DNA of 47,628 nt, from positions 1 to 47,628 of the forward strand of contig JAZUAQ010000049.1 in NCBI GenBank assembly GCA_045638085.1, in the 5' to 3' direction. Shown here one piece after another: positions 1-4,674 of the stretch. A program made the position numbers and the translations under genes. Position 1 is the stretch's first letter; each line of letters opens with the position of its first letter. The notes beneath the pieces were generated by a model. That model saw only the letters and a list, made by a program, of their open reading frames with translations, searched no databases and was not told the origin of the DNA. This DNA comes from Oscillospiraceae bacterium. Lineage in GTDB: Bacteria > Bacillota > Clostridia > Oscillospirales > Oscillospiraceae.

Positions 1-1202
1 TCAAGAGCGGTCATATCCTTCTGACGGCGTCTGTAAACGCAGGAGACCTTCTCTGCGCCGAGACGGATTGCACTTCTTACGCAGTCCATGGCAACGTTGC
101 CACCGCCGATGACAACAACCTTCTTGCCGCTGAAATCGGGCATTTCGCCATCACCGATGCCGCGCAGAAGCATAACAGCGGAGATGACGCCTTCGCTGTC
201 CTCACCCTCGATGCCCACTTTCTTGTCGGTATGGGCGCCGATGGAGATATAAACACTGTCGAACTGCTTTCTCAGATCGTCATAGCGGATGTCCTTACCA
301 ACATCAACCTCGGTTTTCACCTCAATGGGATGAGCGCCAACGGAGAGTATATAGGCAATTTCTTTGTCCAGAGTTTCTCTGGGAAGTCGATAATTGGGAA
401 TGCCGTAACGAAGCATACCGCCAAGCTGCTTTCTCTTCTCGAAAACGGTCACCTTATGACCCATAATGGCGAGATAGAAGGCTGCGGAAAGACCGCCGGG
501 ACCACCGCCGACAACAGCAACGCGCTTTCCGGTTGCAGGAAAATGTCTCTTAGAGGCATTATTATAATCCTGATTATCAACGGCATAGCGCTTGAGAGCG
601 CGGATATTGATAGCGTTATCAACCATATTTCTGCGGCAGCGTGCCTCGCAGGGATGCTCGCAGATATATGCGCAGGCAGAGGGGAACGGATTGTCCTTAC
701 GAATAAGATTGACAGCATCGTCAAATCTTCCATCGTGTACAAGGGCGATGTAACCCGGAATATCAACTCCGGCGGGACAAAGAGCAACGCAGGGCACGGG
801 ATTTTCAAGACTGCCAAGGCAGCGCTTGTTCAGAACGTGCTCCATATAGTCATCTCTGAAGCCGCGTACGCCGTTGAGGACTATTCTTGCAGCCTCAATA
901 CCGATGGCGCAGTCTGCGCTGGCAACGATATTTTCGGCAGTTTTTTCGATGAGGGCAACGGTTTCAACGCTTCCCTCTCCGTCCAGCACCTTGGCAATGA
1001 GTGTGCTGAGCTGGCTGAGGCCGATTCGGCAAGGAACGCACTTACCGCAGGTCTGAGCCTGGCACATGGAGAGAAAGCTAAGTGCCATGTCAACAGGGCA
1101 AAGGCCCGGAGGGCTGGCAGCTATACGGCGCTCGATATCGCGGTAAATACCGTCGACAACGCTTTGAGCCCTTGAGGGCGTATTGATATCAAGTCTGCTC
1201 AT
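1..1202 (-). CDS. GltD-family FAD/NAD(P)H oxidoreductase with N-terminal NuoF-type [4Fe-4S] domain (N-terminal part only; gene runs off the window start)
   Basis: Absent from the ORF track because it has no stop inside the window. My minus-strand translation from ATG at 1202 (GAAGGTG about 7 nt upstream) stays open to base 1. It reads MSRLDINTPS...CGKCVPCRIG (NuoF-like Fe-S motif)...CPAGVDIP...CEHPCEARC (GltD-type cysteines)...VAVVGGGPGGLSAA and VVVIGGGNVAMDC (two Rossmann motifs). The + ORF 231..1175 is its antisense shadow. Confidence 0.85.
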   Translation of the reverse strand, partial: MSRLDINTPSRAQSVVDGIYRDIERRIAASPPGLCPVDMALSFLSMCQAQTCGKCVPCRIGLSQLSTLIAKVLDGEGSVETVALIEKTAENIVASADCAIGIEAARIVLNGVRGFRDDYMEHVLNKRCLGSLENPVPCVALCPAGVDIPGYIALVHDGRFDDAVNLIRKDNPFPSACAYICEHPCEARCRRNMVDNAINIRALKRYAVDNQDYNNASKRHFPATGKRVAVVGGGPGGLSAAFYLAIMGHKVTVFEKRKQLGGMLRYGIPNYRLPRETLDKEIAYILSVGAHPIEVKTEVDVGKDIRYDDLRKQFDSVYISIGAHTDKKVGIEGEDSEGVISAVMLLRGIGDGEMPDFSGKKVVVIGGGNVAMDCVRSAIRLGAEKVSCVYRRRQKDMTAL

Positions 1203-1336
1203 AGTAATTCACCTTCAATTTCTTCTTTGTTGCACAAAAATGGAAAAAATGTACATATCTGTGTAAATTTTCTCATAGGCTCATTTCAATGTCAAGCGTT
1301 AAAAAATACACATATTCATCCCCTAAAACGGGATAT

Positions 1337-1383
1337 ACAAAAAATAACGCTGTATCAATGCATTCAGCCGATACAGCGTTATT
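1337..1383 (-). terminator. intrinsic terminator downstream of the DUF554 gene
   Basis: Perfect 14-bp stem AATAACGCTGTATC (1343-1356) / GATACAGCGTTATT (1370-1383). An A-run at 1339-1344 gives a U-tract on the minus-strand transcript. Confidence 0.7.
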
Positions 1384-1391
1384 TATATTTT

Positions 1392-2111
1392 TCAGAAAAG
1401 TTTTCCTATAAGCTCTGCAAGGGGTATGTATGCAATGGGGAGGAAAATTGCGGGAAGCATATTTGCAACCTTGATGCGTTTGGGGCTAAGCTCCAGCATG
1501 TTGATTCCCATGCCGATGAGGATAACTCCGCCAACGGCACTCATTTCGCAAACAACCTCCGGGCTGAGGTAAGGAGAAATTACGCCTGCGAGGAGGGTAA
1601 GGCCTCCCTGAAAAACGAGTATGAAAAGCGCGGAGAAAGGAACACCCAGTCCCATTGCCGCCGCAAACATAATACTCGTTACAAAGTCGAGGGCGCTTTT
1701 TGCATATATTATGCTGTTATTTCCATTTATTCCCGCTTCGAAAGAGCCCATAATTGTCATACTGCCAACGCAGAAAACCACGCAGGCGGTGACGAATCCT
1801 TCCGTGAAGCGGCCTGCTCCCTTCCCTTTCAGAAGCTTTGACTTAATGAACTCCCCTGCCCCTTCTATGCCGTCATCGATGCGGATTATCTCGCCTATCA
1901 AAGTGCCGAGAGCCATGCATATAATGATGCAGAGTATATCCTCCGTTCCTATGGCGCTTGTTATGCCGATAAGCACGGTGACGAGAGCAAGTGCGCTTAT
2001 TACGGCGCTAACGAATTTTTCTTTTATGAAATTTCGGAAAAGGATGCCGATGGCGCTGCCGAGAAGCACCGTCGCCATATTTACAAATACAGCCAACATA
2101 AATAATTCCAT
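1392..2111 (-). CDS. DUF554-family polytopic membrane protein (YdfK-like)
   Basis: 239-aa ORF that is hydrophobic throughout. The N-terminus (FVNMATVLLGSAIGILF) and overall layout match what I recall of DUF554. The start may instead be the ATG at 2099. Confidence 0.75.
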   Translation of the reverse strand: MELFMLAVFVNMATVLLGSAIGILFRNFIKEKFVSAVISALALVTVLIGITSAIGTEDILCIIICMALGTLIGEIIRIDDGIEGAGEFIKSKLLKGKGAGRFTEGFVTACVVFCVGSMTIMGSFEAGINGNNSIIYAKSALDFVTSIMFAAAMGLGVPFSALFILVFQGGLTLLAGVISPYLSPEVVCEMSAVGGVILIGMGINMLELSPKRIKVANMLPAIFLPIAYIPLAELIGKLF

Positions 2112-2173
2112 CTCTTTGCAGGTTTTATGGACTTGATTTTACATTTTGCGTTCTTAAATGTCAATCACGGGAT

Positions 2174-2203
2174 TTGACAAAGGCGGCCTCTCAGTGGTAT
2201 TAT
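2174..2203 (+). promoter_or_regulatory. sigma-A-type promoter for tRNA-Leu
   Basis: TTGACA (2174-2179), 18-nt spacer, TATTAT (2198-2203). It ends about 19 nt before the tRNA 5' end. Confidence 0.5.
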
Positions 2204-2221
2204 ATGCGGGCATTCAAATAT

Positions 2222-2304
2222 GCGGGTATGATGGAATTGGCAGACATGCAGGATTTAGGTTCCTGTGCGCAAGCGTTGGGGTTCAAGTCCCCATACCCGT
2301 ACCA
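2222..2304 (+). tRNA. tRNA-Leu (anticodon UAG), long variable arm, CCA encoded
   Basis: Hand-folded cloverleaf. Acceptor GCGGGTA/TACCCGT (1:72 is G-U). Anticodon stem CAGGA/TCCTG with loop TTTAGGT. 11-nt variable arm. T-arm TGGGG-TTCAAGT-CCCCA. Discriminator A plus CCA. Confidence 0.9.
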
Positions 2305-2307
2305 AAA

Positions 2308-2337
2308 AACCTCCGGTGCAATGCATCGGAGGTTTTT
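2308..2337 (+). terminator. intrinsic terminator after tRNA-Leu
   Basis: Stem AACCTCCG (2308-2315) / CGGAGGTT (2327-2334), followed by TTTTT. Confidence 0.75.
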
Positions 2338-2363
2338 CAACGAAATAAACCCCTTTCCAGATT

Positions 2364-2562
2364 TGTGAAATACGCTTCGCGTGTGAAATACACCTATGGT
2401 GTGTGAAATGTGCTGCGGCACATAAGGATTTATTTTATTTCACTTGATGCATCAGCATCAAATTTCACAATTCGCACGGCGAATTATTTCACCGAGAGCG
2501 TAGGCTAGCGATTTCACTTATAAATTTATAGCCCGTAAACACATAAAGACAGGCTGTGAAAT
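2364..2562. repeat. array of eight perfect heptamers interleaved with unrelated short palindromes
   Basis: GTGAAAT starts at 2365, 2383, 2403 and 2556. ATTTCAC starts at 2437, 2462, 2486 and 2511. The intervals carry these palindromes: ACGC-TTC-GCGT (2372-2382), ACACC-TAT-GGTGT (2390-2402), ATGTGC-TGCG-GCACAT (2408-2423), TTGATGC-ATCA-GCATCAA (2444-2461), AATTCGC-ACG-GCGAATT (2469-2485) and TATAAATTTATA (2519-2530). Confidence 0.9.
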
Positions 2563-2577
2563 AACAGCCTGTCTTTT
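2546..2577 (+). terminator. 12-bp hairpin with short U-tract (terminator-like); its loop carries the last heptamer copy
   Basis: AAGACAGGCTGT (2546-2557) pairs perfectly with ACAGCCTGTCTT (2564-2575). Loop is GAAATA. Followed by TT then AAT, so four consecutive T counting the stem end. Confidence 0.4.
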
Positions 2578-2601
2578 AATATCGATAGCAATCAATCCGC
2601 T

Positions 2602-2629
2602 ACATCACAATTGGTAGCAGCTGTGATGT
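2602..2629. promoter_or_regulatory. inverted repeat ACATCACA-N12-TGTGATGT upstream of the 2731 gene promoter (candidate operator)
   Basis: Perfect 8-bp arms at 2602-2609 and 2622-2629. They lie about 40 nt upstream of the -35 at 2666 and share the TGTGA/TCACA core with the heptamer array. Confidence 0.3.
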
Positions 2630-2665
2630 CTTGCGAGATTTCTTCAGTCCATTTGTTCACCAACA

Positions 2666-2694
2666 TTGATTTTTTGTAGTATTTGCCATATAAT
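2666..2694 (+). promoter_or_regulatory. sigma-A-type promoter for CDS 2731..3837
   Basis: TTGATT (2666-2671), 17-nt spacer, TATAAT (2689-2694). Confidence 0.55.
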
Positions 2695-2730
2695 TTGTGT
2701 AAGTTCAAATAAAGGGTCGTAAAGGAGCGT

Positions 2731-3837
2731 GTGAAGTCCGTGATAAACTATAAGAAGTCTGTGTTCTGGGTTGTCGTTCTGTCTATCTCCGCCTGCGTGA
2801 TTATTGCGGTCTGTCTCCTAACATATCCAAAAGGATTCCAATTTGACGAAACATCACACACTATTGTTTCTGCTAACCATCTCGACATACGAACTGCTGA
2901 TGATACGGTATCAGCTGAAATGAATTCTTCCCAAATTAGCGAGTTGAGTTCTCGATTAGCCGGGATCAGGAAAACAAAGAAGAGCGATGAATATAGCGGC
3001 TGTACCCCTGTGTATCAAATCAATGCTCTACTGGAGGATGGCACTTGTATTCATATCAACGGATATGATTTGTCAGACAATGATGTGGTAGACATTGAAT
3101 GGAATGACGAACGCTATGTTATATCTGATGTGGAATTTCAAGACTATCTAAGTCGAATCTGCAGTAGAGCAGATGTTTCATCTGCTGATAATATTATAAT
3201 CTTAGATTATTTTGAAAACCTAGAATCCAATGATACTGGCATTATTGAGGATAACAAAATTCTTTCAGAGGACATTGAGAGCGAAGATATTCCCTTCGTG
3301 CCAACCGAAAAAGATGTGTTAGAATTAAGAGCCATTGTACTGGCGGGTATGAGCGATAGCGAAATTTTTAGACTAACCGATTTTATTAAGGCCGCAAATT
3401 CAAGCTTTGAAAATGCGTGGTTTTATAATGATATTTTTGGTCAACTGAGCGATCCCGAGAATGTTTACTGGACCTATTTTGACAGGACCGGAGAAATACA
3501 GATTGGATGGGCAGAAAGCAACGAAGGCAAAATATCAGCGGTTACCGATTACAATGACTACGATGCGGCTTTCTTTATTAGTACTATATCCGAGCTTAAA
3601 GAAAGCGTTGTAAGCGGTATGTTGGATGACGATATGGACAAACTGATTGACCTTTGTTCAAAAGCACAAAAAGCACACGATGTTGAACATGTGGTCGATA
3701 TGTATCATATGCTCCACGATATGGATTATTTTCTCCTTCGGTATGGTCCTACTGATGTGGGAGAGTATGTTAAGGACGATTCGACAATCTCCAAGTACTA
3801 TGGAAGCTTGAGTATATGGAGGGCTTACGAAAATTGA
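2731..3837 (+). CDS. hypothetical N-terminally membrane-anchored protein (368 aa), no family recognised
   Basis: Long ORF with a GTG start. AAAGGAG lies only 3 nt upstream, and a second GTG at 2740 is also possible. One TM segment (VFWVVVLSISACVIIAVCLL) precedes an acidic soluble region. Codon style is atypical for the window (TTA, CTA, AGA used). Confidence 0.7.
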   Translation: MKSVINYKKSVFWVVVLSISACVIIAVCLLTYPKGFQFDETSHTIVSANHLDIRTADDTVSAEMNSSQISELSSRLAGIRKTKKSDEYSGCTPVYQINALLEDGTCIHINGYDLSDNDVVDIEWNDERYVISDVEFQDYLSRICSRADVSSADNIIILDYFENLESNDTGIIEDNKILSEDIESEDIPFVPTEKDVLELRAIVLAGMSDSEIFRLTDFIKAANSSFENAWFYNDIFGQLSDPENVYWTYFDRTGEIQIGWAESNEGKISAVTDYNDYDAAFFISTISELKESVVSGMLDDDMDKLIDLCSKAQKAHDVEHVVDMYHMLHDMDYFLLRYGPTDVGEYVKDDSTISKYYGSLSIWRAYEN

Positions 3838-3876
3838 CCATAGCAAAAGCGTTCCCCCGTGTTGCCAATGCAGCTA

Positions 3877-3905
3877 ATGACAAAGCGAAAAATTTGTGAT
3901 ATGAT
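3877..3905 (+). promoter_or_regulatory. extended -10 promoter for CDS 3985..4674
   Basis: ATGACA (3877-3882), 17-nt spacer ending TGA, then TATGAT (3900-3905). Confidence 0.4.
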
Positions 3906-3984
3906 TTTTGCAAATAGAGGACGTTTCTATTAAAGCTTTTAAATACACAGAACGGTTAGTCAATCTTGTTATTGAGGCGATTTT

Positions 3985-4674
3985 ATGAAAAAATCTTTTG
4001 CATGGAGTCTGATTCTCATTATTACTCTCATGCTTTGTTCTTGTACAGTGCCCTCCGCAGCCGAGTCAGAGACCGGTAATACACAATCAGCCGCGCAAGA
4101 AACACCGGCAACAGAGCCAACGCAGGTAACTCCTCCCGAAACCACGGCAACACCACAGCTGCAAGACTGGAAACCGGCCTATCTGGAGTTTTTAGAAAAC
4201 GCAAAGGATTATCATGTGGGCTTTGCACTGGTTTACATCGATGGGGATGATATTCCGGAGCTTTACCTGAACGGTGATTGCGAAGCCACAGGCGATGCCC
4301 TGTGCACATATAAAAACGGCAGAGTGATTGAAGAGCCTTTAAGTCGCACTTGGGGCGGCAGTTACATTCCCGGTTCAGGACTGGTAAAAAACACCAACGG
4401 CAATATGGGATATTACACCACAGATATTTACAGCCTCACAGACACAGGTTTTGTAAACATTTGGAGCGGCCTTGAAGTGCAGGAGATTATTCCTCCGGCA
4501 AACGAAGACGAAGAGCCAACCATGGCCATTTCCTTCTCCATAGGTGACCAAACCGTTAGCGAAGAAGAATACTATGCAGCCATCGAGGCGGTTTTCAATA
4601 CATCGCAGGCTGTGCCTCTCCACGAAAACACTCTGTCTTATGACGCTGTGCGGCAGCTGATTCAGGATAGCTGA
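3985..4674 (+). CDS. hypothetical secreted protein / probable lipoprotein (229 aa)
   Basis: Signal peptide MKKSFAWSLILIITLMLCSC with a lipobox-like LCSC, followed by a T/P/E/Q-rich linker. GAGG RBS 7 nt upstream. No family recognised. Confidence 0.75.
   Translation: MKKSFAWSLILIITLMLCSCTVPSAAESETGNTQSAAQETPATEPTQVTPPETTATPQLQDWKPAYLEFLENAKDYHVGFALVYIDGDDIPELYLNGDCEATGDALCTYKNGRVIEEPLSRTWGGSYIPGSGLVKNTNGNMGYYTTDIYSLTDTGFVNIWSGLEVQEIIPPANEDEEPTMAISFSIGDQTVSEEEYYAAIEAVFNTSQAVPLHENTLSYDAVRQLIQDS

Follow-up and report, generated by a model that had tools for sequence, protein, structure and literature searches.

The 3′ flank of a tRNA-Leu gene in a genome of an Oscillospiraceae bacterium carries a dense array of seven-base words and small palindromes, which belongs to the Rfam family Gut-1 and is the subject of this report. 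The window, i.e., the whole stretch of DNA that was analysed, comprises 47,628 nt (assembly GCA_045638085.1, contig JAZUAQ010000049.1). The gene for tRNA-Leu(TAG), at 2222–2304 on the + strand (ARAGORN; Rfam tRNA, 48.6 bits), serves as an anchor, and the element begins right after its 3′ CCA. A whole-window Rfam run at the gathering threshold listed tRNA-Pro and missed tRNA-Leu, which was found in a run on a short region; this is a search-filter effect. Downstream of the array lies a co-directional open reading frame (ORF) at 2731–3837 (368 aa, with a hydrophobic N-terminus) that has no Pfam or NCBIfam match. The flanking genes are ordinary chromosomal ones, encoding a DUF554 protein, a PfkB kinase, a 2-hydroxyacid dehydrogenase, an M23 peptidase, glutamine synthetase, and a MatE protein, and a domain scan of the ORFs around the array, within the window’s first 12.6 kb, turned up no integrase, reverse transcriptase (RT), or cas domain.

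The word GTGAAAT occurs on the + strand at 2365, 2383, 2403, and 2556 and on the − strand at 2437, 2462, 2486, and 2511, so that all eight perfect heptamers reported in the first-pass annotation stand exactly where it had placed them. Eight heptamers within 198 bp compare with about 0.03 expected from shuffled sequences; the remaining 47.4 kb hold seven further copies on both strands, with a mean of 7.2 in shuffles of the whole window. The observation is correct and far from chance. Every palindrome that had been listed is present as well, and the description of a conserved linker with variable hairpins, of two inverted blocks, and of their unequal spacing is accurate and recurs in related loci. 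The inventory of words was right as far as it went, but it missed a degenerate CGAAAT (2341–2346) and a decayed hairpin (2347–2364), both of which emerge from the Rfam alignment. The further remark that no described motif could be recognised in the array proved wrong, the array being Rfam RF01706, Gut-1.

The window contains a member of the Gut-1 family that shows the full composite arrangement. An Rfam scan places Gut-1 at 2338–2414 (+), with 65.6 bits against a gathering score of 50 and over model positions 1–77, and with permissive settings the minus strand also gives a Gut-1-like match, from 2519 to 2432 (40.1 bits, E 2.5e-6), which is below the gathering score. Alignment to the Gut-1 consensus, CAaUGAAAU-hairpin-GUGAAAU-hairpin-GUGUGAAAU-hairpin-UGAAAU, and checks of the words and palindromes find in the window the four (G)UGAAAU words and three sequence-variable hairpins of the motif, and the gut Clostridia habitat is likewise shared.

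The 2010 publication of Gut-1 presented it as a non-coding RNA candidate and rated it a certain RNA on the basis of covariation (Weinberg 2010, PMC2864571); its Rfam family type is “Gene; sRNA” (small RNA). The published description consists of one sentence and presents a stand-alone sRNA from human gut metagenomes only (PMC2864571). Absent from it are the inverted long arm, the preceding hairpin (hp0), the closing segment, the adjacency to tRNA 3′ ends, the stems free of wobble pairs, the loop signature on the opposite strand, and the PF05635 gene, all of which are described below. The flanks of the 2010 Stockholm seed already show the inverted second block, the word in those seeds being GUGAUAU/AUAUCAC, and some seeds have a preceding tRNA or terminator. 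One related locus (L410) is near-identical to the 2010 seed BAAZ01025322, whose contig stopped just short of a PF05635 gene. Family members are also present in metagenome-assembled genomes (MAGs) from the guts of ruminants and other animals and in some viral contigs. Thus, the array as such is not new, because the motif has already been described (RF01706), whereas three aspects appear to be new: the architecture of the composite, its DNA-type signature, and the tight association with a stand-alone Avd-like gene. A literature search found no published description of any of the three for Gut-1.

In the window, the composite opens with hp0 (2305–2337), an inverted repeat that forms a 16-bp hairpin between an A-tract and a T-tract and is at once the tRNA terminator and the first composite module. 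The short arm (2338–2414, +) is the Rfam Gut-1 motif itself; it consists of the degenerate CGAAAT (2341–2346), the three GTGAAAT words at 2365, 2383, and 2403, and the hairpins at 2347–2364 (decayed), 2372–2382 (ACGC-TTC-GCGT), and 2390–2402 (ACACC-TAT-GGTGT). Between the arms stands the central hairpin hp4, ATGTGC-TGCG-GCACAT (2408–2423), whose TGCG loop is common to the 2010 seed sequences, followed by the closing segment X′, AGGATTTATTTT (2425–2436), complementary to the 5′ start of the short arm, GAAATAAACC (~2342–2351). The long arm (2432–2519, −) is the inverted Gut-1-like unit, with ATTTCAC at 2437, 2462, 2486, and 2511 and hairpins at 2444–2461 (TTGATGC-ATCA-GCATCAA), 2469–2485 (AATTCGC-ACG-GCGAATT), and 2493–2510 (CGAGAGC-GTAG-GCTAGCG), the last of which bears a tandem A.G/G.A mismatch that recurs in related loci. 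An AT-rich palindrome, TATAAATTTATA (2519–2530), forms the outer end of the long arm, and a terminator-like hairpin found by the terminator scan (2545–2576) closes the gap. The latter had been described as a 12-bp hairpin with the last word in its loop; the hairpin and the eighth word exist, but the arms are of 13 bp (2545–2557 and 2564–2576), and the word (2556–2562) overlaps both stem and loop. It is uncertain whether this hairpin is part of the element. A terminator-like hairpin stands 10–80 nt past the long arm in many related loci, where its loop does not hold the word; the chance of one copy of the word arising in about 60 bp is below 1%.

About 200 related loci (L numbers) were compared. 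A scan of 185,579 species genomes for three copies of GTGAAAT returned at least 120 loci, the sampling being by exact-word patterns. An array was taken as genuine if all its spacers were different and nearly all were self-complementary, which holds for 83 of the 120 genome loci among the matches listed; the counts of pairs, tRNAs, stems, and neighbours given below come likewise from among the matches listed. A looser scan of viral contigs (GTGAWAT three times) was discarded, since it gave nearly nothing except tandem repeats and giant-virus noise, and arrays were thereafter found by exact words and a palindromic-spacer filter. The sources are nearly all gut Clostridia MAGs (human and ruminant), with a few loci assigned to Akkermansia or Bacteroidales. 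Genuine GTGAAAT arrays of other phyla come from three Akkermansia MAGs (L123, L127, and L178) and a Bacteroidaceae MAG (L122), which may reflect either horizontal spread or mis-binning.

The composite form recurs in the family. Forty-six arrays make up 23 pairs, all of them (23/23) convergent and each uniting a short arm (stems of ~4–5 bp, spacing of 18–20) with a long arm (stems of ~7 bp, spacing of ~25), just as in the window; many apparent single arrays possess a partner arm with variant words. The short arm has four words and four small hairpins, and the long arm, beyond the closing segment, has four words and three larger hairpins, the full order being hp0, (C)AACGAAAT, hairpin 1, word, hairpin 2, word, hairpin 3, word, hairpin 4, GTGNG, X′, ATTTCAC, hairpin, ATTTCAC, hairpin, ATTTCAC, hairpin, ATTTCAC-T. 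In every related composite, a sequence-variable hp0 directly precedes (C)AACGAAAT; it is terminator-like where a tRNA precedes and has been duplicated along with the array in L150 and L179. X′ covaries across loci with the 5′ start of the short arm, the match being on average 9.96/12 within a locus versus 7.13/12 between loci; 17 of 24 composites reach 10–12 of 12, and the window has 9/12. Stems abut the words without any unpaired base in 216 of 225 hairpins (96%), and within an array all spacers differ and all 8–10 words are identical. The window composite aligns module by module with those of gene-bearing arrays (L126, L158, L173, L185, L240, and L398), and the stem TTGATGC/GCATCAA is common to the window and L173, whose array has a PF05635 gene.

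Some loci depart from this scheme. In L121 and L125, the two arms carry different words (GTGAAAT versus ATATCATCA or (C)ATCAT), and in L125 a terminator hairpin lies between the arms, and two elements stand in tandem. The idea that the heptamers of the two blocks pair with each other is borne out in so far as thermodynamics predicts such pairing, but it is no general requirement, since the arm words of L121 and L125 are non-complementary. L189, L191, and L192 are long-stem arrays at contig ends, where the outer side bears a long AT-rich hairpin, AAATTATAGTTTAT...ATAAACTATAATTT, whose counterpart in the window, TATAAATTTATA, is short.

Arrays favour the 3′ ends of genes. A tRNA lies directly upstream of 26 of 114 arrays, always co-oriented, of at least 13 isotypes, and with the short arm toward the tRNA, and the genes flanking arrays are co-directional in 35 cases, convergent in 13, and divergent in one. 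In L179 (5183–5290), a second composite is followed by a segment resembling a tRNA T-arm, GCGGGTTCGAATCCC, which may be a tRNA fragment; ARAGORN calls no tRNA near that array. Phage-like clusters away from tRNAs have arrays that mostly use GTGATAT: L028 (1478–1557), L096 (3822–3890 and 4303–4353, flanking a small ORF), and L281 (1516–1583 and 4307–4354). The L028 array follows an ORF that we take, from our own reading without a family scan, to encode a head–tail connector protein. These three may be the only truly phage-internal cases, several other viral-contig arrays, which stand beside tRNA clusters, being perhaps host flank at prophage borders. L233 was considered as a circular replicon and rejected, as only an 80-nt array recurs at both contig ends.

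The locus of the window copy was followed in four relatives, traced through flanking DUF554 orthologues of 96, 91, 90, and 87% identity. All four keep tRNA-Leu(TAG), their homology to the window ends within a few bases of the CCA (2304–2307), and the array was not found at this tRNA in any of them. In the closest relative (L388), blastn homology extends up to 2307 and begins again at 3874, which leaves in the window a lineage-specific segment of 1566 bp (2308–3873), comprising the array, the hairpin at 2545–2576, and the ORF at 2731–3837, where L388 has 128 bp instead. L389 has a different terminator after tRNA-Leu, the L391 contig ends at the CCA, and L390 (the DUF554 orthologue of 90% identity) has a phage-type integrase at 1531–2667 after the same tRNA-Leu(TAG), without the array. 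The 3′ end of tRNA-Leu(TAG) is a general variable or integration spot. No target-site duplication, terminal inverted repeat, or duplicated tRNA 3′ segment was seen at the borders of the 1566-bp segment.

Such a setting invites the explanation that the array is a remnant of att or arm-type sites left by an integrase-bearing element that had entered at tRNA-Leu, as its position directly after the tRNA, the lineage-specific 1.57 kb downstream, and the integrase of L390 at the same tRNA would suggest. However, the integrase element of L390 has no array, the ORF scan over the window’s first 12.6 kb gave no integrase, integrases are only 2 of 94 array neighbours, no tRNA 3′ segment is duplicated at the far junction, and the same array architecture occurs away from tRNAs as well. 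This explanation is largely refuted, and we give it almost no credence. DnaA boxes, CRP/Rex half-sites, Chi sites, DNA uptake sequences, type III toxin–antitoxin repeats, and anticodon-loop mimicry were also considered and found no support, their spacing or word frequency (seven copies outside the array, as expected by chance) being a misfit.

The same data bear on a selfish repeat of the repetitive extragenic palindrome (REP), bacterial interspersed mosaic element (BIME), or miniature inverted-repeat transposable element type, spread by a single-strand-specific transposase, HUH or REP-associated tyrosine transposase (RAYT)-like, or by another transposase that targets hairpins at the 3′ ends of genes and tRNAs, with the PF05635 gene as a mere passenger. 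Near-identical arrays with different flanks exist within one genome (L150; L179; and L189, L191, and L192 in MAG JAZTZP01), for 29 of 114 arrays a contig end is no more than 150 nt away, and close relatives differ in having or lacking the array at the same tRNA-Leu, with the break just after the CCA; the extragenic 3′-end positions and the combination of a single-strand hairpin with a conserved flanking word are also those of REP elements. Against this stand the lack of any enriched transposase family in the 94 neighbours, the lack of target-site duplications and terminal inverted repeats at the window junctions, and the hairpin sequences, which, unlike those of REP, differ within an array. 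Moreover, a tight, oriented, fixed-distance link to PF05635 and the match between words and protein clades (see below) would not be expected of a passenger. We regard a transposase-driven repeat as unlikely. The related proposal of a decayed miniature repeat in the first-pass annotation holds in part: the window has an orphan copy whose first hairpin has decayed, the closest relatives lack it at the same tRNA-Leu, and some genomes contain several members of the family.

A candidate protein partner of the array emerges from its neighbours. PF05635 (“23S rRNA-intervening sequence protein”) is the only enriched Pfam family, with 7 of 94 array-flanking ORFs; integrases, with 2 of 94, are not enriched, and RT families are missing both from the 25 Pfam families found most often in the 94 neighbours and from the DNA downstream of array-linked PF05635 genes. 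Searches with tblastn located 9–10 PF05635 genes (including a pseudogene and a fragment) 15–230 bp from arrays; the genes usually lie about 50 bp past the last long-arm word, read away from it, and follow about 10% of arrays. The sole PF05635 gene in 2.35 Mb of viral loci likewise adjoins an array. The array-linked proteins are 43–90% identical and occur behind different tRNAs, their genes being stand-alone and having their own terminator. Between the last word of the array and the start codon of the gene stands an extended −10 element (TGnTATAAT), which places the array upstream of the gene’s own promoter. Two of the loci carry Gut-1 twice above the threshold, either consecutively before the gene (L404, 1928–2003 and 2187–2262) or once on each side of it (L398, 2277–2353 and 3291–3367).

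The link was also approached from the opposite side, by a metagenome scan with the protein alignment alone, from which the best 80 of 586 relatives were taken. Among these, at an identity of at least 61%, Gut-1 above the Rfam threshold lies upstream in 9 of 11 loci and the other two have arrays by word detection; at 50–58%, the composite is usually present with other words; and at 39–47%, no Gut-1 match reached the threshold in 20 loci. Some of the distant PF05635 homologues have four contiguous heptads before the gene (TTGACAA four times at ~2455–2485 in L455 and AATGGAN four times at ~2425–2455 in L472), and contiguous heptads before the gene may be a general, undescribed property of PF05635. 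In 24 loci, the 450 nt upstream of the PF05635 gene include the end of a tRNA, which always has the same orientation as the gene. One homologue (L470; 41% identity, gene at 2501–2848) sits inside a 23S rRNA match (1094–4358) and is a classical intervening sequence (IVS). The protein clades coincide with the words [GA]TGAAAT, GTGATAT, GTGAAGT, and [AG]TGATGT, protein identity being 0.69 within a word and 0.54 between words (permutation p ~2e-4).

PF05635 resembles Avd, the accessory protein of diversity-generating retroelements (DGRs) (PMC10053308), which is a pentameric, highly positively charged barrel and binds DGR RNA (PMC6182149). The S23p protein of Xanthomonas is a homopentameric toroid (PMC4990558), and the closest solved relative of the array-linked proteins, PDB 2RLD, was deposited with five chains. 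The 23S IVS of Coxiella, which its authors regard as a “selfish element”, has the heptamer GACAGAT repeated three to four times in tandem directly before the S23p ORF (PMC4990558). The contiguous heptads of L455 and L472 echo this arrangement. Recognition of the DGR target involves a DNA hairpin or cruciform with free stem sequence and an essential, strand-specific 4-nt GRNA loop, and a possible contact of this hairpin with Avd or RT has been suggested by the authors (PMC3240598). A literature search for a HEPN or nuclease role of PF05635 yielded nothing usable. Membership of the array-linked Avd-like genes in DGRs was considered and rejected, as no RT lies downstream.

Whether the palindromes act as RNA or DNA can be judged from their pairs and loops. 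In 109 distinct arrays, 1314 of 1320 stem pairs are Watson–Crick, none is G.T, and three are A.C; these arrays had been pre-selected for at least four perfect pairs in most spacers, which is a bias against mismatches, though internal G.T pairs would still have been scored. Wobble at the stem edge (10 G.T versus 7 A.C) is too rare to inform. Loops closed by G..A make up 60% on the ATTTCAC strand versus 2% on the GTGAAAT strand, in both arms, and the same asymmetry is seen in C-GNA-G cores (121 versus 11) and in GCGAAGC (28 versus 0). In the window, GCGAAGC, the canonical mini-hairpin of DNA, is found on the bottom strand at 2374–2380. Mini-hairpins of the type d(GCGNAGC) greatly exceed their RNA counterparts in stability and mark single-stranded DNA signals such as the G4 origin, ssiA of RSF1010, and the N4 promoters (PMC13037366; PMC3201870). 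One long-arm hairpin has a conserved tandem G.A/A.G mismatch that is favourable on the ATTTCAC strand only. The short arm thus favours the bottom strand and the long arm the top strand, and a single RNA cannot satisfy both arms, because the inverted arms favour opposite DNA strands.

These features argue against the published view, which was also one of the hypotheses of the first-pass annotation, that Gut-1 is a small structured non-coding RNA, which would be made here as two convergent copies or by read-through from tRNA-Leu and whose GUGAAAU linkers would bind or titrate an RNA-binding protein, maybe PF05635. In its favour are the Rfam score above the gathering threshold, the 2010 rating as a certain RNA on covariation (PMC2864571), extreme folding z-scores, a terminator-like hairpin (2545–2576) that follows the element although the next gene is co-directional, the binding of DGR RNA by Avd (PMC6182149), and the presence of the Coxiella heptamers in transcribed RNA (PMC4990558). 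But the covariation in perfect palindromes fits DNA hairpins equally well, and the z-scores (−9 to −11) are obtained on either strand and with DNA or RNA parameters, so that folding can decide neither the strand nor the molecule. G-U pairs are missing from all 1320 stem pairs, and the loop and tandem-GA asymmetry favours the strand opposite to the Rfam model in the short arm and opposite strands across the two arms. In the window, a strong terminator hairpin stands immediately 5′ of the Gut-1 motif, a promoter scan of 2204–2666 gave no + strand promoter-like site, and the 30-bp centre of the array leaves no room for divergent promoters. Where a PF05635 gene is present, the array lies between the terminator and the gene’s own TGnTATAAT promoter, i.e., upstream of the promoter in complete elements. 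An RNA reading of Gut-1 is disfavoured, though less so at the level of the words, and as a whole we rate it as rather improbable.

The mini-hairpins also raise the possibility that the arms are DNA signals of the single-strand initiation or promoter type (like ssiA/ssiB of RSF1010, the G4 origin, or N4) placed on opposite strands and read by a primase or polymerase. GNA mini-hairpins are a hallmark of such signals (PMC13037366), the stable hairpins on opposite strands diverge from the centre, and some arrays are found in phage contigs (L028, L096, and L281). The context of the arrays is nevertheless chromosomal, with no replication genes among the neighbours scanned; there are many copies per genome, and the conserved words and the PF05635 link would be left unexplained, which makes a signal of this kind a very remote candidate.

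We favour, with an about even chance, a reading in which the PF05635 protein binds at the words and the palindromes function as DNA hairpins. The heptamers would be the recognition sites of a small, pentameric four-helix-bundle protein of the Avd/S23p family, and the palindromes would form in single-stranded or extruded DNA rather than as RNA helices. Since the stems abut the words exactly, hairpin extrusion would bring the spaced words together into contiguous heptads, like those upstream of distant PF05635 genes, and PF05635 binding would then depend on unwound DNA. Each arm has about five words if degenerate end copies are counted, and proteins of the family form pentamers. In the complete element, the PF05635 gene would lie about 50 bp beyond the long arm, behind its own promoter; autoregulation would be the simplest role there, because the long arm lies against the −35 region of that promoter. 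Among the ideas of the first-pass annotation, protein-binding iterons come closest to this reading and are the best supported, with PF05635 as the candidate reader; this candidate is neither an integrase (2 of 94 neighbours and none by the window array) nor a partition or classical operator protein.

A more specific proposal is put forward only tentatively. Gut-1 may be no RNA gene but the cis-acting DNA part of a compact, hitherto unrecognised element of about 700 bp, composed of hp0, the short arm, the long arm, a promoter, a stand-alone Avd/S23p-like gene, and a terminator, which would colonise the 3′ flanks of tRNA genes as its relatives colonise 23S rRNA in the form of IVSs. One word would be bound per subunit of the pentamer, the mini-hairpins would have to extrude so that binding senses unwound DNA, and most copies would be orphans served in trans. 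It is plausible that such a selfish element uses stable-RNA genes as safe sites.

Several observations weigh against the favoured reading, in addition to the pre-selection of stems mentioned above. About 89% of word-sampled arrays have no adjacent PF05635 gene, and tblastn with seven array-linked proteins found none in the 47.6-kb window; the window copy is therefore an orphan, and a trans-acting protein must be assumed, one that would serve this copy in trans if it is served at all. The match between words and protein clades could stem from co-inheritance of linked sequences, and what points to a common reader is solely the concerted identity of the 8–10 words in each array. The window loops on the ATTTCAC strand (CGCA, ATA, GAA, ATCA, ACG, and GTAG) are mostly not of the G..A type, and the array loops in general are GNA/GNNA, not the GRNA consensus of DGR targets. 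Short-arm stems of 4–5 bp are too short for stable cruciforms in duplex DNA, for which reason single-stranded DNA must be invoked. Finally, the heptamers of the Coxiella IVS are transcribed, which would allow the words to be read at the RNA level (PMC4990558).

For the window itself, the outcome is a known motif in an orphan copy at a strain-variable spot after tRNA-Leu, and nothing in the window visibly depends on the array. The wider interest lies in the families concerned. Gut-1 has been in Rfam since 2010 as an orphan “sRNA”, and PF05635 is widespread and has solved structures, with no known function outside DGRs. If the favoured reading is true, both orphans would gain a candidate partner, a motif filed as RNA would become a candidate structure-dependent DNA-binding array, and the role of Avd in DGR target recognition (a DNA hairpin with a G..A loop) would be suggested as an ancestral property of the family.

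Among known systems, CRISPR shares with the array the regular alternation of conserved and variable segments and the hairpin potential. Unlike CRISPR, with its repeats of 25–40 nt and unique, non-palindromic spacers, the array has conserved 7-nt linkers, variable parts that are self-complementary, and fixed 4+4 units, and its earlier characterisation as the “reverse of CRISPR logic” is apt: the conserved unit is 7 nt long, the variable units are palindromes, and the neighbouring ORFs scanned have no cas domain. The omega repressor of inc18 plasmids, a ribbon-helix-helix dimer, binds WATCACW heptads that are arranged in direct and inverted orientation, contiguous, and duplex. The likeness lies in the 7-bp words, their two orientations, and a small oligomeric protein, and the word ATATCAC of a Gut-1 subgroup contains TATCAC; the omega heptads are not known to have hairpins, however, and the protein fold is unrelated.

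REP and BIME elements of Enterobacteria and Pseudomonas are multi-copy extragenic palindromes at the 3′ ends of genes, often in inverted pairs, and are read as single-stranded DNA. In REP, a short conserved single-stranded word stands beside the hairpin, and hairpin sequences are conserved within a genome, whereas the hairpins of Gut-1 differ even within one array. No RAYT, Y1, or IS200-like transposase was found among the neighbour families of arrays (94 neighbours; whole genomes were not searched).

Closer parallels are offered by the two settings of the Avd/S23p family. On the favoured reading, the DGR target with Avd resembles the array in having a DNA hairpin of free stem sequence, a strand-specific loop of the G..A type, and a protein of the Avd family (PMC3240598). 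It differs in its single hairpin, compared with 7–8 per Gut-1 element and conserved heptamers between them, and in GC-rich stems of 7–10 bp rather than stems of 4–8 bp and GRNA rather than GNA/GNNA loops, the latter being strongly strand-specific. Moreover, there is no RT among array neighbours, downstream of linked genes, or among the window ORFs scanned, and no template or variable repeat nearby. The 23S rRNA IVS encoding S23p (Coxiella, Leptospira) has a different heptamer, GACAGAT, contiguous and transcribed, and it lies inside rRNA rather than after a tRNA, without interleaved hairpins and without an inverted second arm. Yet it shares with the complete Gut-1 element a PF05635-type ORF that follows three to four tandem heptamers, a location in or next to a stable-RNA gene, the standing (for Gut-1 only proposed) of a horizontally acquired selfish element, and a pentameric protein family (PMC4990558).

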